Below, piece after piece: positions 49,491 to 55,730 of a DNA stretch of 64,000 nucleotides. The number at the start of each line of letters is the position of its first letter. Within the stretch, counting starts at the first letter, position 1. The position numbers were made by a program, and so were the translations under genes. Source of the DNA: Opitutia bacterium (GTDB taxonomy: Bacteria > Verrucomicrobiota > Verrucomicrobiia > Opitutales > Seribacteraceae); assembly GCA_018675995.1 (NCBI GenBank), contig JABGWZ010000065.1, positions 783 through 64,782 on the forward strand, given 5' to 3'. Below the pieces are notes generated by a model, which saw nothing but the letters and a program-made list of their open reading frames with translations, made no database searches and was not told where the DNA came from.

Positions 49491-50567
49491 TCAGTCGATT
49501 AAATTCTCATTCTCCCGAATCGCTAAAATCCGAAATGGCAATTTCATTTTGGTATTCTGAGAGCTTCTGGGCTTTATTTCTTTTTTCCTACGAGAAGTAT
49601 TTGATTGTCCACCTGTTGAGCTTTCAGCAGCTAAAACCACATGTAATTTAAAATTCGCTTTTCCTTTCGACACATCAATCCTAATCCTGAAAACAGTTGC
49701 TGTAACCCCAGTGCTAATTGATCGTTTTTGCCTCAATTGCCTAAGGTTTTGATGATTCATGCTCTTAAAAAAGGGTTCACCACTAGAACTAGATGGACCA
49801 TCAAGCATTTCCTCAAATAGTCCCTCATCATCTCCGCATAAAAACCTGAGTAAAAAGGGAGAAGCTGTGTTGATGTTAACTGGTCCATCATGAAAAAAAG
49901 AAAAGCTATCACGGAAATTCTGCATTTGAATTTTTTCGCTTCCATCTTCGGCAAAAAAAAGTCCAGATTCCTCCGGATCTTCTTCATCGTATCCAAAGCC
50001 TTTAACCATTCTTAACTCCTCGAAGTTCTCGATTTTTTTGCCAGGCGTGAAATACGGAAATTTAAAATCCTCATAATAATCATCCTCAGCACCCTCATCT
50101 CTGTCATCATCATCTGCATCCTGCCAGTCCATCAGACTATCAAAAAAAGGCTGTCCATCATCATCGCTGACAAGAGAATCCTCATCCGCACTCATAACCG
50201 CAAATAAAGAAACTAAATCTTTTTCCTTGATAGAGCCCAATGAGACTTTACCCGTTTCATCAATAATCGAAATAGACAACTTAACGGTCGGATCAAGTAA
50301 ATCAATCTCTGAGTAAGCTAATGGATCACCCCAACCCTGTGACGGTGCAAACAAAGTCTTCTCAACCAATACAAACTCATTTAAAACACCCATTGCTAAA
50401 TCCAGTCCCGAGTATGCATGAATCCTCAAGTCATCTCTACGGTGGAATTGACTAACATGTCGTAATTCCTGAACAGTTTCCTCCATTAAGCGCATGCACA
50501 AAACGGAAAGCATTACGATCAAAACCAATATGAATACCAGTATGGAACCTTTCGTCTTATGGATCAC
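49491..50567 (-). CDS. gspK: T2SS minor pseudopilin K
   Basis: KG|SILVFILV prepilin-like site, IIDETGKV, DSLMDWQDAD, EELRMVKG, VNINTA. Confidence 0.9.
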   Translation of the reverse strand: MIHKTKGSILVFILVLIVMLSVLCMRLMEETVQELRHVSQFHRRDDLRIHAYSGLDLAMGVLNEFVLVEKTLFAPSQGWGDPLAYSEIDLLDPTVKLSISIIDETGKVSLGSIKEKDLVSLFAVMSADEDSLVSDDDGQPFFDSLMDWQDADDDDRDEGAEDDYYEDFKFPYFTPGKKIENFEELRMVKGFGYDEEDPEESGLFFAEDGSEKIQMQNFRDSFSFFHDGPVNINTASPFLLRFLCGDDEGLFEEMLDGPSSSSGEPFFKSMNHQNLRQLRQKRSISTGVTATVFRIRIDVSKGKANFKLHVVLAAESSTGGQSNTSRRKKEIKPRSSQNTKMKLPFRILAIRENENLID

Positions 50568-51280
50568 TAAAAAGGTTCCTCCTCAATGCCAGTAGGTGAA
50601 ATTCTTCGAATCGGCAATGTTATGGTTCTTTCCAAGTCTTCATCTTCCCAGGAAAATACTAATTTCATAAAATCTGGCGTACGATATTTTCCACTCCGAA
50701 TATCTTCTTCTAAATCGTCAACTATTTCCCATTCCTTAAGGTCATCATCACCTTCATTATCATCTCCATAATAGCAGTAGAAAACTTCTGTGCAAAATGA
50801 ACTTATTGATGTCTTAAATAATTCGTCTTCATCTTCAAGCTCCATGTTGCCCTCATCATTTTTTTCTAATTCCTGGAGTTCTGAATACCACAAAATACTC
50901 AATCCCTCCCCTTCGACAAATTGGAAGAAACAGTGCACCCGAGCTGCTGGTCCATTAGGCCAAACCAAAAGGGGCGGCCCCTCTCTTAAATAAAAATGAA
51001 TAAGTGGATCTTCAGATTCAGAGTAACCAATAGGTCTTTGTAAATCGATTGGTTGATCCCCAGATCGGCTGGAAGCAGGAAGGCTAGCCTCCTCAAGAAC
51101 AGCAGTAAGAAAGTGAGCGACACCGTTAATGTGGGCATCAAATGCGTCCCGCGTTGCAGGTCTTTCTGCCCATGCTCTGGAAATGGTAATCAATAAAGAT
51201 GTTGCAGTGGTGAGAACTAATCCCCCAATGGTCAAAGCGAGTAAAACTTCGACCATTGAAAATCCTTTCCTGGCTTTCAT
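50567..51280 (-). CDS. gspJ: T2SS minor pseudopilin (GspJ position)
   Basis: RKG|FSMVEVLLAL N-methylation motif and gene order. Confidence 0.75.
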   Translation of the reverse strand: MKARKGFSMVEVLLALTIGGLVLTTATSLLITISRAWAERPATRDAFDAHINGVAHFLTAVLEEASLPASSRSGDQPIDLQRPIGYSESEDPLIHFYLREGPPLLVWPNGPAARVHCFFQFVEGEGLSILWYSELQELEKNDEGNMELEDEDELFKTSISSFCTEVFYCYYGDDNEGDDDLKEWEIVDDLEEDIRSGKYRTPDFMKLVFSWEDEDLERTITLPIRRISPTGIEEEPF

Positions 51281-51771
51281 AAACTTCGCCTTTCTTCCTG
51301 AATCTCTCTAATTTTTTCTCTTTTATCCTCTAGCAACCTACTTCTTTCTGCAGAAAAATCTGCATAAAAACCCCAACTTGGGCGAAAAAGATACATTTGG
51401 GATGACCGCTCGCCGGATTGAATTCCAATTTCATCATTTCCATCATATTCAAGGATCAAGGAAACAATATATACATCCAAAACTTCACTCATCTCAATTT
51501 CTGTCTCCCATCTAACTTCCCCAAGAGATAATGATGTTAAATCACCACCGTCTTTAATTTTTTCATAATCTGAAATCTTCAAAATCTCACCTCTTATCCA
51601 AAGAAGGTCCTGCTCCATTTCTCTTGTGTCTTTCATTACCCGAATTGTCCGAGAGGCAATAAATGCACCATCAACCAAATAAACCGCTGAAAGTCCAAAC
51701 AAAGCAAGGGCTATTAAAACTTCAATGAGCATAAAGCCTAAATACCGATTATATCTTTTAGGAAAATTCAT
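51277..51771 (-). CDS. gspI: T2SS minor pseudopilin (GspI position)
   Basis: LG|FMLIEVLIALA motif and gene order. Confidence 0.75.
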   Translation of the reverse strand: MNFPKRYNRYLGFMLIEVLIALALFGLSAVYLVDGAFIASRTIRVMKDTREMEQDLLWIRGEILKISDYEKIKDGGDLTSLSLGEVRWETEIEMSEVLDVYIVSLILEYDGNDEIGIQSGERSSQMYLFRPSWGFYADFSAERSRLLEDKREKIREIQEERRSL

Positions 51772-52307
51772 TCTTCCTGCTTAAGCATATACCCCGAAAA
51801 GGGATCGAACTCTAAAAGTTGTATTTCATCTCTAAATTTAATCTCAGCGAAAAAAGGAATACTGCAACCGGAATGAAAAAATACCCTCTTTAGTAATAAA
51901 TCGTTTTTGCTGTATTTGGAACGCCCACCATCCTCACCTGCAAGTGGACCAACAGCATAGAAATTTACTTCTGGTAGGATAGAATCGTCATTACGCAAAA
52001 TTTCATTGAATTTTTTATAAACTTTGTGCTCGGCTAAAGCTTTACCGGAAGAATCAAGCACCAAGAAACTAGCATTTTCTTCAAAGTAAGATAAGTAACT
52101 AGCATCTTTGGTCTCACTTGCGTGATAAACCGCGTCAAGAACCGCTTTTTTTAAAACTCTATGTGGAGGCTCAAAATTACTCCCTGTAATGAAGGCACCT
52201 GTGTTTCCAGCCACAATGCCAACCAAAATTGCTACCAATGCCAATACCAATAAAACCTCAATTAAGCTGAAGCCCCTCTTTCGGTACGACAAAGGTACCG
52301 CACTCAA
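51768..52307 (-). CDS. gspH: T2SS minor pseudopilin (GspH position)
   Basis: KRG|FSLIEVLLVL motif. TTG 52307, just after the gspG stop, is preferred to 52334. Confidence 0.72.
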   Translation of the reverse strand: MSAVPLSYRKRGFSLIEVLLVLALVAILVGIVAGNTGAFITGSNFEPPHRVLKKAVLDAVYHASETKDASYLSYFEENASFLVLDSSGKALAEHKVYKKFNEILRNDDSILPEVNFYAVGPLAGEDGGRSKYSKNDLLLKRVFFHSGCSIPFFAEIKFRDEIQLLEFDPFSGYMLKQEE

Positions 52308-52308
52308 A

Positions 52309-52728
52309 CTATTTTCCGGTATCCCAATTTCCAATCACTGTTCCATCTGGTGCAGTGGTGGAAATATCAAAACTACCGGTATTCTGGGCACCGGGGTATA
52401 CGTAAACATATGGCTTACCCCATGGGTCTTCCAAATCTGAAGATCTCTTAACAAAAGGCGGGATTCCATTAGGTGGTGTCTTTAAGTCATTAATGCTCTT
52501 AGGGTACTCCCCAACCAATGCGAAATAACTTGTCACATACGCTTCTCCCGTACTGTTTACCCAAGTTTGGGCTGCCTTCACCTTCCCGCCTCCGAAAATT
52601 TCTCCGAGGTTGGACATGGCCAGCCCGGCAACGATTCCAATCAAAGCTAACACGATCAGAATTTCAACTAAAGTAAACCCTCGTACTCTGGATGTACGAC
52701 TTTTGATTGTTTTTGCAGCAGTTATCAT
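52309..52728 (-). CDS. gspG: T2SS major pseudopilin G
   Basis: RG|FTLVEILIVL, G.YP and DPWGKPYVYVYPG (T2SSG C-terminal motif). Confidence 0.92.
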   Translation of the reverse strand: MITAAKTIKSRTSRVRGFTLVEILIVLALIGIVAGLAMSNLGEIFGGGKVKAAQTWVNSTGEAYVTSYFALVGEYPKSINDLKTPPNGIPPFVKRSSDLEDPWGKPYVYVYPGAQNTGSFDISTTAPDGTVIGNWDTGK

Positions 52729-52846: not shown

Positions 52847-53221
52847 ATGACTTTAGTAGATTATTTACCCGTACTAATCCAAATTTTACTGGCTGTTGGA
52901 ATGGGTTTTGGAATTCTATTCGCAAGCCATCTGTTTGGTCAGAAAGCGATCGCCGGTAAAATTAAAGATTCCCCATACGAATGTGGATTGGCAGCAGATA
53001 CAAAAGGGGAGACTCGATATTCGGTCAAATTTTACATCACTGCCATGCTTTTTATATTGTTCGATATTGATGTTGTATTTCTTATACCCTGGGTACTTAC
53101 TCATCGCGACCTTGTAGCGGCCGGCATACCTATCCTTGGGCCGATGCTTTTCTTCACATTCATTCTGGTTGCAGGCTTAGTATACGAATTGAAAAGTGGC
53201 GCACTTGAGTGGGAAAAGTAA
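52847..53221 (+). CDS. nuoA: NADH-quinone oxidoreductase subunit A
   Basis: PYECG, YSVKFYITAMLFILFDIDVVFLIPW, GALEW. Confidence 0.94.
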   Translation: MTLVDYLPVLIQILLAVGMGFGILFASHLFGQKAIAGKIKDSPYECGLAADTKGETRYSVKFYITAMLFILFDIDVVFLIPWVLTHRDLVAAGIPILGPMLFFTFILVAGLVYELKSGALEWEK

Positions 53222-53281
53222 GCAAATTTAAAGACACACGACTTTCGGGCACTTCGCTCGAACACTAAATTGAGCTGAAAA

Positions 53282-54637
53282 ATGCACATTGACCGTTATA
53301 TTTCAGCAAATCGTATCATTGATATATCGAGTAACGACTTAGTTTCCGCTTACACCGAATTACTTGAAACCTTTTCAACACTGCTGCCAACTCCGGCGAA
53401 GAAAAAAAAGGTTCTTAATGAACTGGTAAGCAGAGAAAAATCCCTAACCTCCTACCTGGGTGAAGGCGTTGCCCTGCCCCATGCCCGTGTCCCCATGAAG
53501 CGCCCCTACGCTTTGGCAATTGGCAGATGCCCAACCGGACTTTCCTTCCTTGGTAAAGATAGTTATGAAGATGTGCGCTTCGTCTTCCTACTTCTTGCCA
53601 ATGAAAAAGCGAAGAATTACCTATCTTTCTTAGCCGCCCTTGCTCGATCCTTTCAGGATAGCTCGGTCATGGATCAGCTTTGGATGGCAAGAGGGAAAAG
53701 CGAATTCCGATCTGCAGTCCGAAGCGCCTTTGCAGGAACCGACGATAGACCTGCCCGTCGAAGAACTAAGTTTAACAAACTCCTGACTGATGAAGCAGCT
53801 AAAATTGCCAAGGCTGCTGAATGCTCAACCATCCTGGTATTTACTGATGTTTTCCCCCCAAGCCTTGCCCCAAGAATGACTTTCTCCGGTTTTAATGTCG
53901 TGCTTGCCGGTCAGGATCTTACGGATGATGACAAAGAACATCATCGAGCTGATGCCACTTTGGCCGTCCGTGCACTTTCTCGGGCCCGCCTCTCTCAATT
54001 AAGGGCTGCAATTCTTCTTGGACTTACAAGAGATATTTTTGGATTTCAGGACCGAGTGTGCTGTATTGGGGGAATCCCTGGCAGTGGTCAGCTGGACACT
54101 GTACTGGTTGTGGATGTTGATGAGGAATTTGAATCAGTAATCGGCCAAGGAGAGGATATGTTACCCCCCGATGTTTCCGCGGAGGCACTTGAAAGAATTA
54201 CCGCTATCGCAACTGACCTCGCTGCGGAAGGAAGGGAAGGGAAATCCATCGGTGCCATGTTTATTTTGGGTGATCACGAAGAGGTGAGCAAGCGATCCAA
54301 ACCGCTTATTCTTAATCCTTTCTTTGGGTACGATGAAGAAGACAGATCCATCCTTAACCCCTTTATGGATGAGACAATAAAGGAACTCGCTTTAATTGAC
54401 GGTGCCTTCGTATTACGAGGAAACGGAGTGGTTGAGTCCGCCGGTTGCCTCATACAGGCAAAATCAGAAGATATTATTTTGCCGGGTGGGCTTGGAACCC
54501 GACATGCTGCAGCTGCTGCTATTACTCATGTAACCGACTCTCTGGCCCTTGTTGTCTCCTCTTCTGGGCAAGTCACCTATTTTAGAAAAGGACAGATGTT
54601 TACCCTGTTTGATAAGTCAGAGGGTCGCACCTTATAA
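53282..54637 (+). CDS. PTS EIIA(Ntr-like) / pyruvate-kinase-C-like / diadenylate cyclase (CdaZ/DacZ-type) fusion
   Basis: EIIA: REKSLTSYLGEGVALPHAR. Middle: AAKIAKAAECSTILVFT...DRVCCIGGIPGSGQLDTVLV. DAC: EGREGKSIGAMF, IDGAF, GLGTRHAAAA. Confidence 0.85.
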   Translation: MHIDRYISANRIIDISSNDLVSAYTELLETFSTLLPTPAKKKKVLNELVSREKSLTSYLGEGVALPHARVPMKRPYALAIGRCPTGLSFLGKDSYEDVRFVFLLLANEKAKNYLSFLAALARSFQDSSVMDQLWMARGKSEFRSAVRSAFAGTDDRPARRRTKFNKLLTDEAAKIAKAAECSTILVFTDVFPPSLAPRMTFSGFNVVLAGQDLTDDDKEHHRADATLAVRALSRARLSQLRAAILLGLTRDIFGFQDRVCCIGGIPGSGQLDTVLVVDVDEEFESVIGQGEDMLPPDVSAEALERITAIATDLAAEGREGKSIGAMFILGDHEEVSKRSKPLILNPFFGYDEEDRSILNPFMDETIKELALIDGAFVLRGNGVVESAGCLIQAKSEDIILPGGLGTRHAAAAAITHVTDSLALVVSSSGQVTYFRKGQMFTLFDKSEGRTL

Positions 54638-54644
54638 TGACTAA

Positions 54645-55244
54645 ATGCCGATCTCGCAAAAATCACCACCAGCTAAAATCGGATTTTTTGGTGGATCCTT
54701 CGACCCGGTTCATATCGGACACCTCTCGATTGCAAGGCAGGCAATCGAAGACGCCAATCTTGACCTGCTCATCTTCTGCCCAGCTTACCATGCACCACTC
54801 AGGAAAAAACAACCACTATTGCCAGCTAGCCTTCGGTTCGATATGCTCAAAGTTATTGCCGCTGAAAATGATCGAATGGAAGTCTCCTCTTTGGAATTAG
54901 ATAAACAGAAAACCTGTTATACATACCATACAGTACAAGAAATTCAGAAACAATACCCAACAAGTAAGATTATGCTCATCCTTGGATCCGACCAGTTCAA
55001 CAGATTGTCGGAATGGAAATTCAGTAAGGAACTTGCTAAGCTTTGCCACTTTTTGGTCTTTTCTAGGACCACAACTCATATTCCTAGTCCGTTGACCCCC
55101 GATCTTTCCTATCAACACATAAAAAATAATTTAATTAATTGCTCATCAACAGAAATCAGAAACCGAATCCGAAACAACAAACCAGTTGATAAAATGATTC
55201 CAAATTCCATCCTAAATATTTTTCTACAATTCCTTTCAAGATAA
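54645..55244 (+). CDS. nadD: Nicotinate-nucleotide adenylyltransferase
   Basis: GFFGGSFDPVHIGH, ILGSDQ, CSSTEIR. Confidence 0.94.
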   Translation: MPISQKSPPAKIGFFGGSFDPVHIGHLSIARQAIEDANLDLLIFCPAYHAPLRKKQPLLPASLRFDMLKVIAAENDRMEVSSLELDKQKTCYTYHTVQEIQKQYPTSKIMLILGSDQFNRLSEWKFSKELAKLCHFLVFSRTTTHIPSPLTPDLSYQHIKNNLINCSSTEIRNRIRNNKPVDKMIPNSILNIFLQFLSR

Positions 55245-55257
55245 TCAATTTTAATTT

Positions 55258-55635
55258 ATGACATTTACTATCCCCAAAGAAAAAAAATTACTTTCTGCAA
55301 ACCTTAAAATTGCCTGTGAGGCACTGTCGGAGAAAAAAGGCGAGGATTTAAAACTTCTCTATTTTGGTGAGAAATCTTCCCTTACCGACTGTTTTATCAT
55401 TGCCACCGGAAATTCCAACCCACACCTCAAGGCACTGCGTGACAATGTGGAAAAAACACTAAAGGATAATGGGATTGAATTATTCTCCAAAGACCGATTT
55501 CAACCAAGTGGCTGGCTAGTGATCGACGCCATCGATTTCGTTGTCCACCTTTTTTCCCAAGAACAAAGAGAAAACTACGCCATCGAACAATTATGGAAAG
55601 ATGCAGAGCAAGTTTCTGTTGAAGACTTAGTTTAA
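55258..55635 (+). CDS. rsfS: Ribosome silencing factor
   Basis: EKKGED, DCFIIATG, WLVIDAIDFVVHLF, RENYAIEQLW. Confidence 0.94.
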   Translation: MTFTIPKEKKLLSANLKIACEALSEKKGEDLKLLYFGEKSSLTDCFIIATGNSNPHLKALRDNVEKTLKDNGIELFSKDRFQPSGWLVIDAIDFVVHLFSQEQRENYAIEQLWKDAEQVSVEDLV

Positions 55636-55730
55636 TCATTTCACTAATATTTGATTACTTACCTTGACGAGAGTTAAGGTTTTCTGTGCATTTGTTATTT
55701 TAGAGTAATTCCTATTTAAGAAATATTATT

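Follow-up and report, generated by a model that had tools for sequence, protein, structure and literature searches.

An EIIA-fused diadenylate cyclase of the DacD class in an Opitutia bacterium and its predicted control through HPr

Many bacteria depend on cyclic di-AMP (c-di-AMP) or are poisoned by it, and the physiological control of the diadenylate cyclases that form it is partly known and was worked out mainly for the Gram-positive enzymes CdaA and DisA. The present work concerns dacD, a diadenylate cyclase gene at positions 53282-54637 (forward strand) of a stretch of 64,000 nucleotides from an Opitutia bacterium of the phylum Verrucomicrobiota (assembly GCA_018675995.1, contig JABGWZ010000065.1, positions 783 to 64,782). 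This whole stretch is called the window below, and positions are counted from its first letter unless another contig is named. The gene encodes a protein in which a type-2 EIIA domain of the phosphotransferase system (PTS) is followed by a DacZ_P domain and a diadenylate cyclase (DAC) domain. The protein is a typical representative of 'DacD', a diadenylate cyclase class that was catalogued before, and it is not a new kind of system. We regard it as fairly probable that this enzyme, the sole c-di-AMP synthase found in its genome, is controlled in cis by the PTS protein HPr through phosphorylation of His67 in the EIIA domain.

The DacD class is said to be defined by its EIIA_2 fusion, in a nomenclature that reportedly goes back to Corrigan & Gruendling 2013. 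The class was listed with representatives from Lacunisphaera limnophila, Puniceicoccaceae, Coraliomargarita and Opitutae (Braun 2019, PMC6741144). Its taxa and its three Pfam domains are shared with the protein studied here, and no architectural difference is seen. The archaeal enzymes DacZ from Haloferax volcanii and DacY/CdaZ from Methanocaldococcus jannaschii make c-di-AMP (PMC6741144; PMC10249747) and have a PK_C-like N-terminal domain in common (Braun 2019, PMC6741144). As in these archaeal enzymes, the PK_C-like domain of DacD is placed directly before the DAC domain, whereas the extra N-terminal EIIA domain and the bacterial host set it apart from DacZ/CdaZ. In H. volcanii, dacZ forms an operon with mscS2 (PMC6741144), while the neighbour of dacD in the window is nuoA. 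According to a 2026 survey, DacZ-type cyclases in the gut occur mainly in the phylum Verrucomicrobiota (PMC12901056). A preliminary description of the locus, made from the sequence alone, had stated that such fusions are known from comparative genomics and that no experiments on them were known. This agrees with the searchable literature, in which the class is listed (Braun 2019) and in which no experimental study on any member of the DacD class was found.

For the catalytic part, the closest structurally characterized relatives are CdaA/DacA of Firmicutes (4rv7, 6hvl, 8ogk), which share the DAC fold, the DGA motif and the RH residues with DacD. CdaA is membrane-anchored and carries the motifs RHR and SEET, whereas DacD is soluble, has RHA and S-SS at these places and bears regulatory domains of its own in cis. 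The regulators of CdaA, CdaR and GlmM, act in trans. The N-terminal part (residues 1-150) has its best structural match in EIIA-Ntr/PtsN of Proteobacteria (1a6j, 2a0j, 3urr). PtsN belongs to a permease-less regulatory PTS and has separate target proteins such as TrkA and KdpD, which it reaches in trans; the EIIA domain of DacD is, in contrast, fused to its presumed target. It differs from PtsN further in that it is not an orthologue, has a tyrosine instead of the second active-site histidine and has a partner enzyme I (EI) that lacks a GAF domain.

Domain architecture and catalytic site

The dacD reading frame runs from ATG to TAA and encodes a soluble protein of 451 amino acids. Three Pfam domains were assigned with scores far beyond chance: PTS_EIIA_2 (PF00359; residues 26-146, 53357-53719; E 9.7e-18, 65 bits against a cut-off of 27), DacZ_P (PF21755; residues 167-284, 53780-54133; E 5e-12, 46 bits against 27.4) and DAC/DisA_N (PF02457; residues 314-438, 54221-54595; E 1.7e-20, 73.2 bits against 27), the last covering profile positions 3-118 of 119 (116/119) and thus the profile from end to end. 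An AlphaFold2 model of the full-length protein, for which 84 family sequences were the input, reached a mean pLDDT of 90.6 and a pTM of 0.66. Its best PDB matches in Foldseek were EIIA-Ntr structures with a TM-score on the target of 0.77-0.83 (0.82-0.83 for 2a0j and 1a6j, with the EIIA fold spanning residues ~1-150), and CdaA catalytic domains were matched as well (TM-score on the target ~0.65, E ~1e-7). Profiles and folds hence bear out the fusion of EIIA, PK_C-like and DAC domains that the preliminary description had proposed, and the motifs it had read lie where it placed them: GVALPHAR at residues 62-69, AAKIAK...ILVFT at residues 172-187, DRVCCIGGIPGSGQLDTVLV at residues 257-276, DGA at residues 373-375 and RHA at residues 407-409. 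Its statement that the protein has no transmembrane helix holds too, as the best 19-residue Kyte-Doolittle mean is 1.41 and the segment concerned is modelled as a beta-hairpin.

Conservation was assessed in 84 representatives of the family, with identities down to 26%. The predicted phospho-acceptor of the EIIA domain, His67 (53480-53482) in an LPH motif, is histidine in 95% of these sequences; the preceding Pro66 is conserved in 98% and Arg51 (53432-53434), 16 residues before His67, is arginine in 94%. This spacing presumably matches that of Arg49 and His65 in EIIA-Mtl and of Arg57 and His73 in EIIA-Ntr. According to the family alignment, Tyr113 (53618-53620) occupies what we take to be the place of the second active-site histidine of EIIA-Mtl (His111) and EIIA-Ntr (His120). 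Tyrosine is found at this position here and in most Opitutia, while 53 of the 85 wider-family sequences (the 84 representatives and the query) have histidine.

The middle domain is pyruvate kinase-like in fold. A PDB sequence search with the middle-domain profile gave nothing significant. The AlphaFold2 model of residues 154-305 alone (pLDDT 85.7, pTM 0.79) had only pyruvate kinases among its top 50 PDB hits (E ~1e-4, ~130 columns, TM-score on the query 0.5-0.59), and the PK_C likeness seen from the first is therefore confirmed by fold. The further assumption that the domain binds sugar phosphates or AMP, as PK_C was said to do, does not carry over. The loop after the first beta-strand of DacZ_P reads ILVFTDVFPP here and VFGDTFxGG in relatives, whereas pyruvate kinases presumably carry a TxSGxSA-type phosphate loop at this place, and because of the FTDVFPP loop neither a sugar phosphate nor AMP can be deduced as the ligand. 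DacZ_P is probably a ligand sensor. Near-invariant polar residues in the clade are N165, D189, R230, S233, R236, Q239, R241, R250 and D272, and an anionic ligand is plausible for a domain of this composition. It is likewise plausible that the protein is under 'two-input' control, through EIIA and through DacZ_P.

In the DAC domain, G317, E319, G324, N345-P346, E368, D373-G374, G382, G403, G405, R407-H408 and S426 are invariant in the 84 representatives. The DGA motif (D373-G374-A375, 54398-54406) thus has an invariant aspartate and glycine, and its alanine is conserved in 97%. A literal RHR motif as in CdaA and DisA is not present; at its place stands RHA (54500-54508) with invariant arginine and histidine. 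The third residue is alanine throughout the Opitutia clade and A, T, Q, H, R, V or E across the DacZ-like family, with arginine in a small minority, so that RHA is what the family normally shows and does not represent a lesion. The preliminary description had called RHA a variant, which is right relative to CdaA and DisA; as an anomaly it does not stand, and the idea that RHA marks an inactive enzyme was rejected for the same reason. The SEET stretch of CdaA, as placed by the alignment with PDB sequences, corresponds to S[EQ]ST in the wider family, and in the Opitutia clade the E/Q position is deleted, which results in S-SS.

These two deviations from CdaA bear on the question of whether the domain is active at all. 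If the DAC domain were catalytically dead, it might serve as a nucleotide-binding sensor and the protein would be a PtsN-like regulator with EIIA as its output. Consistent with this are RHA in place of the RHR of CdaA and DisA, the lack of a glutamate in the SxST stretch compared with SEET, and the failure of the protein to reach the NCBIfam equivalog cut-off for DacZ (98.9 against 430 bits). We nevertheless consider a dead domain very improbable, as the last residue of RHx differs widely among DacZ-like proteins, no variation is seen in DGA, RH and the other DAC positions named above, dacD is the only DAC found in the 2.6-Mb metagenome-assembled genome (MAG, ~92% complete), a dedicated PgpH-type phosphodiesterase is kept and the gene is retained even in genomes of 0.8-1.0 Mb. 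The invariant DAC positions, the sole DAC, the kept PgpH and the near-universal single DAC of the order rather argue for DacD as a working and important enzyme.

The top NCBIfam model for the protein is archaeal DacZ (NF041371), which at 98.9 bits scores well above CdaS, CdaM, CdaA and DisA. As the cut-off of this haloarchaeal equivalog is missed, DacD is to be regarded as a relative and not as an orthologue of DacZ. The homologues found number more than 1,300, and the 120 best, which come from marine Opitutae, Opitutales and Verrucomicrobiota, are nearly all ~451 amino acids long with the identical three Pfam domains. A library clustered at 50% identity contained 2,571 relatives, among them many full-length three-domain proteins with identities down to 26-35% as well as DacZ_P-DAC proteins of ~300 amino acids without the EIIA part. 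In one distant full-length cluster, from Verrucomicrobiia, the architecture is kept and the gene neighbourhood is not. The best 80 loci in reference genomes all carry the label Opitutia or Opitutales, the cultured genera being Coraliomargarita, Lentimonas, Lacunisphaera, Cephaloticoccus, Nibricoccus and Opitutus, with the exception of one record labelled 'uncultured bacterium' and one MAG labelled 'Polaribacter sp.' (L012, CAXQRK010000040.1). The latter contains an Opitutales-type nuoA-dacD pair with 51% identity, and its label probably reflects a binning error of that MAG. A homologue of 592 amino acids (P0099) has two stretches that leave the family alignment and a long unrelated tail; these look like assembly frameshifts and not like a real variant.

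Phosphotransferase partners and predicted control

A search of the genome for ptsI and ptsH, which had been suggested with the preliminary description, returned ptsI, ptsH and hprK, and all three products score above their NCBIfam cut-offs. EI (586 amino acids) contains the PEP-utilisers_N, mobile and C domains without a GAF domain and scores 553 bits with the PtsI family TIGR01417. HPr (100 amino acids) contains the motifs GIHARPA and KSIMG with the histidine and serine sites, and ptsH adjoins the EI gene. HprK/P is full-length; its gene directly follows lptB on contig C140 (14280-16005) and is itself followed by dnaA, with no ptsN present. In Proteobacteria the place after lptB is, as we take it, occupied by rpoN-hpf-ptsN-rapZ-npr. 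A second PEP-utilizers_C match in the genome was identified as pyruvate phosphate dikinase (PPDK).

The only EIIA_2 domain of the genome resides in dacD. Neither EIIA-Man (PF03610) nor EIIA-Glc was found in the genome; tblastn with E. coli Crr gave a single weak match, which proved to be a sulfatase. Since the sole EIIA domain is part of the cyclase, the permease-less PTS of this organism has one visible EIIA destination, and the cyclase appears to be its only EIIA output. The preliminary description had the protein join K+/carbon-nitrogen control systems. The nitrogen part of this found no support: the EIIA domain scores 40.9 bits with the PtsN equivalog TIGR01419 (cut-off 138.7), a PtsP-type EI-Ntr partner with an N-terminal GAF domain is lacking, the only EI being, by its domain set, of the PtsI type, and no nitrogen-sensing element was found in the genome.

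In the mechanism that we favour, EI would phosphorylate HPr on its histidine in a reaction dependent on phosphoenolpyruvate (PEP), and HPr~P would hand the phosphoryl group on to His67. HprK/P would phosphorylate HPr on serine and thereby throttle the phosphoryl flux. The phosphorylation state of EIIA, together with the ligand of DacZ_P, would decide whether two DAC domains pair into the active head-to-head dimer, and this pairing would set the level of c-di-AMP, which the PgpH-type HD phosphodiesterase would degrade. The phosphotransfer, the direction of its effect on activity, the ligand and a K+ or osmotic role are what we infer here from the parts.

A wider proposal can be made only tentatively. 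In Opitutia the entire PTS may be reduced to a sensory relay, composed of EI, HPr and HprK/P, whose sole EIIA output is the sole c-di-AMP synthase, so that carbon and energy state, through the PEP/pyruvate ratio and the metabolites sensed by HprK, would directly set c-di-AMP. The minimal module would be HprK-HPr-EIIA::DAC, workable without EI and without the acceptor histidine, which would imply a second mode of control, by binding of HPr or HPr(Ser-P) to the cyclase and not by its phosphorylation.

Distribution in the order and variant genomes

DacD is the standard cyclase of Opitutia. A scan of 81 genomes of the same order found a DAC in 77 and a second DAC in only two; nearly all DAC reading frames are ~450-480 amino acids long, also those of 0.8-1.0 Mb genomes. 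The EIIA_2-DAC fusion is present in 73 of the 81 genomes and holds the only EIIA_2 domain in 57 of these 73. Two kinds of exception act as natural experiments on the EIIA domain.

The first concerns a lineage of reduced genomes with cyclases that consist of DacZ_P and DAC and lack the EIIA domain (L092, 3757-4806, reverse strand; L093, 3310-4224, forward strand; genomes G064 and G037). In both loci the cyclase gene adjoins a gmhA-like SIS-domain gene, as read by eye from the translation. G064 (784 kb in 20 contigs) was read whole. HPr, HprK and EI were not found in it, its only EI-like match being a PPDK with 61% identity to the PPDK of the genome studied here, while the controls PgpH, LptB and DnaA were found at 47-59% identity; nuoA is absent as well. 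These forms could indicate that the EIIA domain of DacD is an evolutionary remnant that serves folding or dimerization, with the cyclase regulated by DacZ_P alone or constitutive and the PTS acting elsewhere. As the EIIA-less proteins of G037 and G064 show, DacZ_P-DAC is viable by itself, many DacZ-like proteins of ~300 amino acids exist, and no conserved linkage to PTS genes was seen in the loci of distant members that were examined. We still consider a remnant improbable: the EIIA active-site residues are strongly conserved, the genome with the EIIA-less cyclase has also lost HPr and HprK, and most genomes of the order have no other EIIA_2 domain for the PTS.

The second exception is G003, a single complete contig of 878,461 bp that was also read whole. 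It encodes a full-length fusion protein with 43% identity, in which His67 is replaced by tyrosine (GNGVALPYIRR). No EI was found on the contig, where PPDK is again the only EI-like match; HPr is kept with both sites (597788-598042), and hprK starts within ~85 nt downstream of dacD (C1:225625-227970, L155-L156). Such a position of hprK next to dacD was found neither in 21 other loci nor in the best 80 loci. Across these genomes the EIIA domain is tied to HPr and HprK by joint loss, by joint retention and, in one genome, by adjacency. The lack of both EI and the acceptor histidine in G003 means that the coupling there is not by histidine phosphotransfer, and histidine phosphotransfer from EI is thus not needed in every lineage. 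The acceptor position is changed in further lineages too, to Asn in G007 and G059 and to Cys in G053; 17 of 21 other loci that were inspected retain His67. In G069, which keeps His67, none of EI, HPr, HprK and PPDK was found in 657 kb of at least 766 kb, and PPDK is present in both other small genomes (G064 and G003).

The variants raise the question of whether the EIIA domain is above all a docking module for HPr, such that binding of HPr or HPr(Ser-P) would control the cyclase allosterically, phosphorylation of His67 would be dispensable or secondary and HprK would be the real sensor. G003 fits such docking well, with its EIIA domain, its intact HPr and its hprK beside dacD in spite of the missing EI and the tyrosine at position 67. 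The replacement of His67 in three further lineages that keep the EIIA domain and the full-length HprK/P of the present genome point the same way. The 94-98% conservation of His67, Pro66 and Arg51 in the 84 representatives is, in turn, hard to explain without phosphotransfer, the genome studied here has an EI whose gene adjoins ptsH, and the case is built on one fully read genome. Docking as the principal mode of control is therefore rather unlikely in our view, if a good deal more credible than a remnant or a dead cyclase.

Control of the cyclase through phosphorylation of His67 remains the reading that we prefer, and several points weigh against it. The second active-site histidine of EIIA is replaced by tyrosine in this protein, and RHA and S-SS stand where CdaA has RHR and SEET. 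A further EIIA or DAC could possibly lie unseen outside the ~92% of the genome that the MAG represents, and the metatranscriptome contigs that cover the locus (see below) can hold DNA. The variant cases G064 and G003 are single genomes each. G003 keeps EIIA, HPr and HprK without EI and with tyrosine for His67, and with the replacements in G007, G053 and G059 the acceptor is missing from more than one lineage, so that EIIA may be coupled by a binding interaction in other lineages too.

Gene neighbourhood, possible targets and significance

Upstream of dacD lies nuoA (52847-53221, forward strand; 124 amino acids; complex I subunit A/ND3 family; Pfam Oxidored_q4, E 9e-28), with a gap of 60 nt in which no terminator-like site was found. 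This is the sole copy of nuoA in the genome, and the nuoBCDEFGHI operon (C231:12282-19968) starts without it. Where enough upstream sequence was available, nuoA immediately precedes dacD in 71 of 75 Opitutia loci. Downstream follow nadD (54645-55244, forward strand; nicotinate-nucleotide adenylyltransferase; TIGR00482 158 bits against a cut-off of 112), which starts 7 nt after dacD, and rsfS (55258-55635, forward strand; ribosomal silencing factor; Pfam RsfS, E 5.6e-27), the last gene of the putative operon, with a terminator-like hairpin at 55661-55680. A conserved linkage to nadD and rsfS was rejected, as these genes follow dacD in no more than 3 of 74 loci, all of them from close relatives.

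Seawater metatranscriptome contigs run across nuoA-dacD (53105-53451 and 53174-53311) and across dacD-nadD (53371-54747 and 54470-54797), which is consistent with expression and co-transcription. A conserved co-transcription with the only nuoA may point to another connection, between dacD and respiratory complex I. Just before nadD, within the final codons of dacD, a strong sigma-70-like site is found (54609-54638, TTGATA-18-TATAAT, 11/12), which could be an own promoter for nadD-rsfS. Divergent from nuoA-dacD are four consecutive open reading frames (50567-52728, reverse strand), whose N-termini resemble, by eye, those of type II secretion pseudopilins.

For the turnover of c-di-AMP, the genome encodes a PgpH-type phosphodiesterase with seven transmembrane helices and an HD domain, located in a phoH-pgpH-ybeY cluster. 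On contig C208 (14924-16639, reverse strand) a K+ channel is encoded that has a TLGYGD filter and two TrkA_N/TrkA_C units, i.e., regulator of K+ conductance (RCK) units; it was the only protein matched by a B. subtilis KtrA probe. RCK_C domains bind c-di-AMP in other bacteria, and this channel is a candidate target of c-di-AMP. The c-di-AMP riboswitch (RF00379) and DarA/PstA (PF06153) were not found in the genome. With one RCK K+ channel and neither riboswitch nor DarA, the link to K+ control drawn in the preliminary description stays conjectural.

What is new here, beyond the catalogued class, is that the sole DAC and the sole EIIA of a genome lie in one protein, that the fusion is near-universal in the order and that EIIA is lost together with HPr and HprK in one lineage; to this are added the variant that lacks both His67 and EI and has hprK beside the cyclase gene, and the conserved linkage to nuoA. 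The DacD class unites enzyme and regulator in one chain, and the genome reveals what is probably the pathway upstream. The natural variants, i.e., the EIIA-less cyclase without HPr and HprK and the His67-less cyclase without EI and with HPr and HprK, are ready-made controls, and cultured hosts exist in Coraliomargarita akajimensis, Opitutus terrae, Lacunisphaera limnophila and Cephaloticoccus capnophilus. If the HPr-dependent control is true, it would connect the PTS directly with c-di-AMP and would explain the role of a permease-less PTS with HprK in a Gram-negative phylum.

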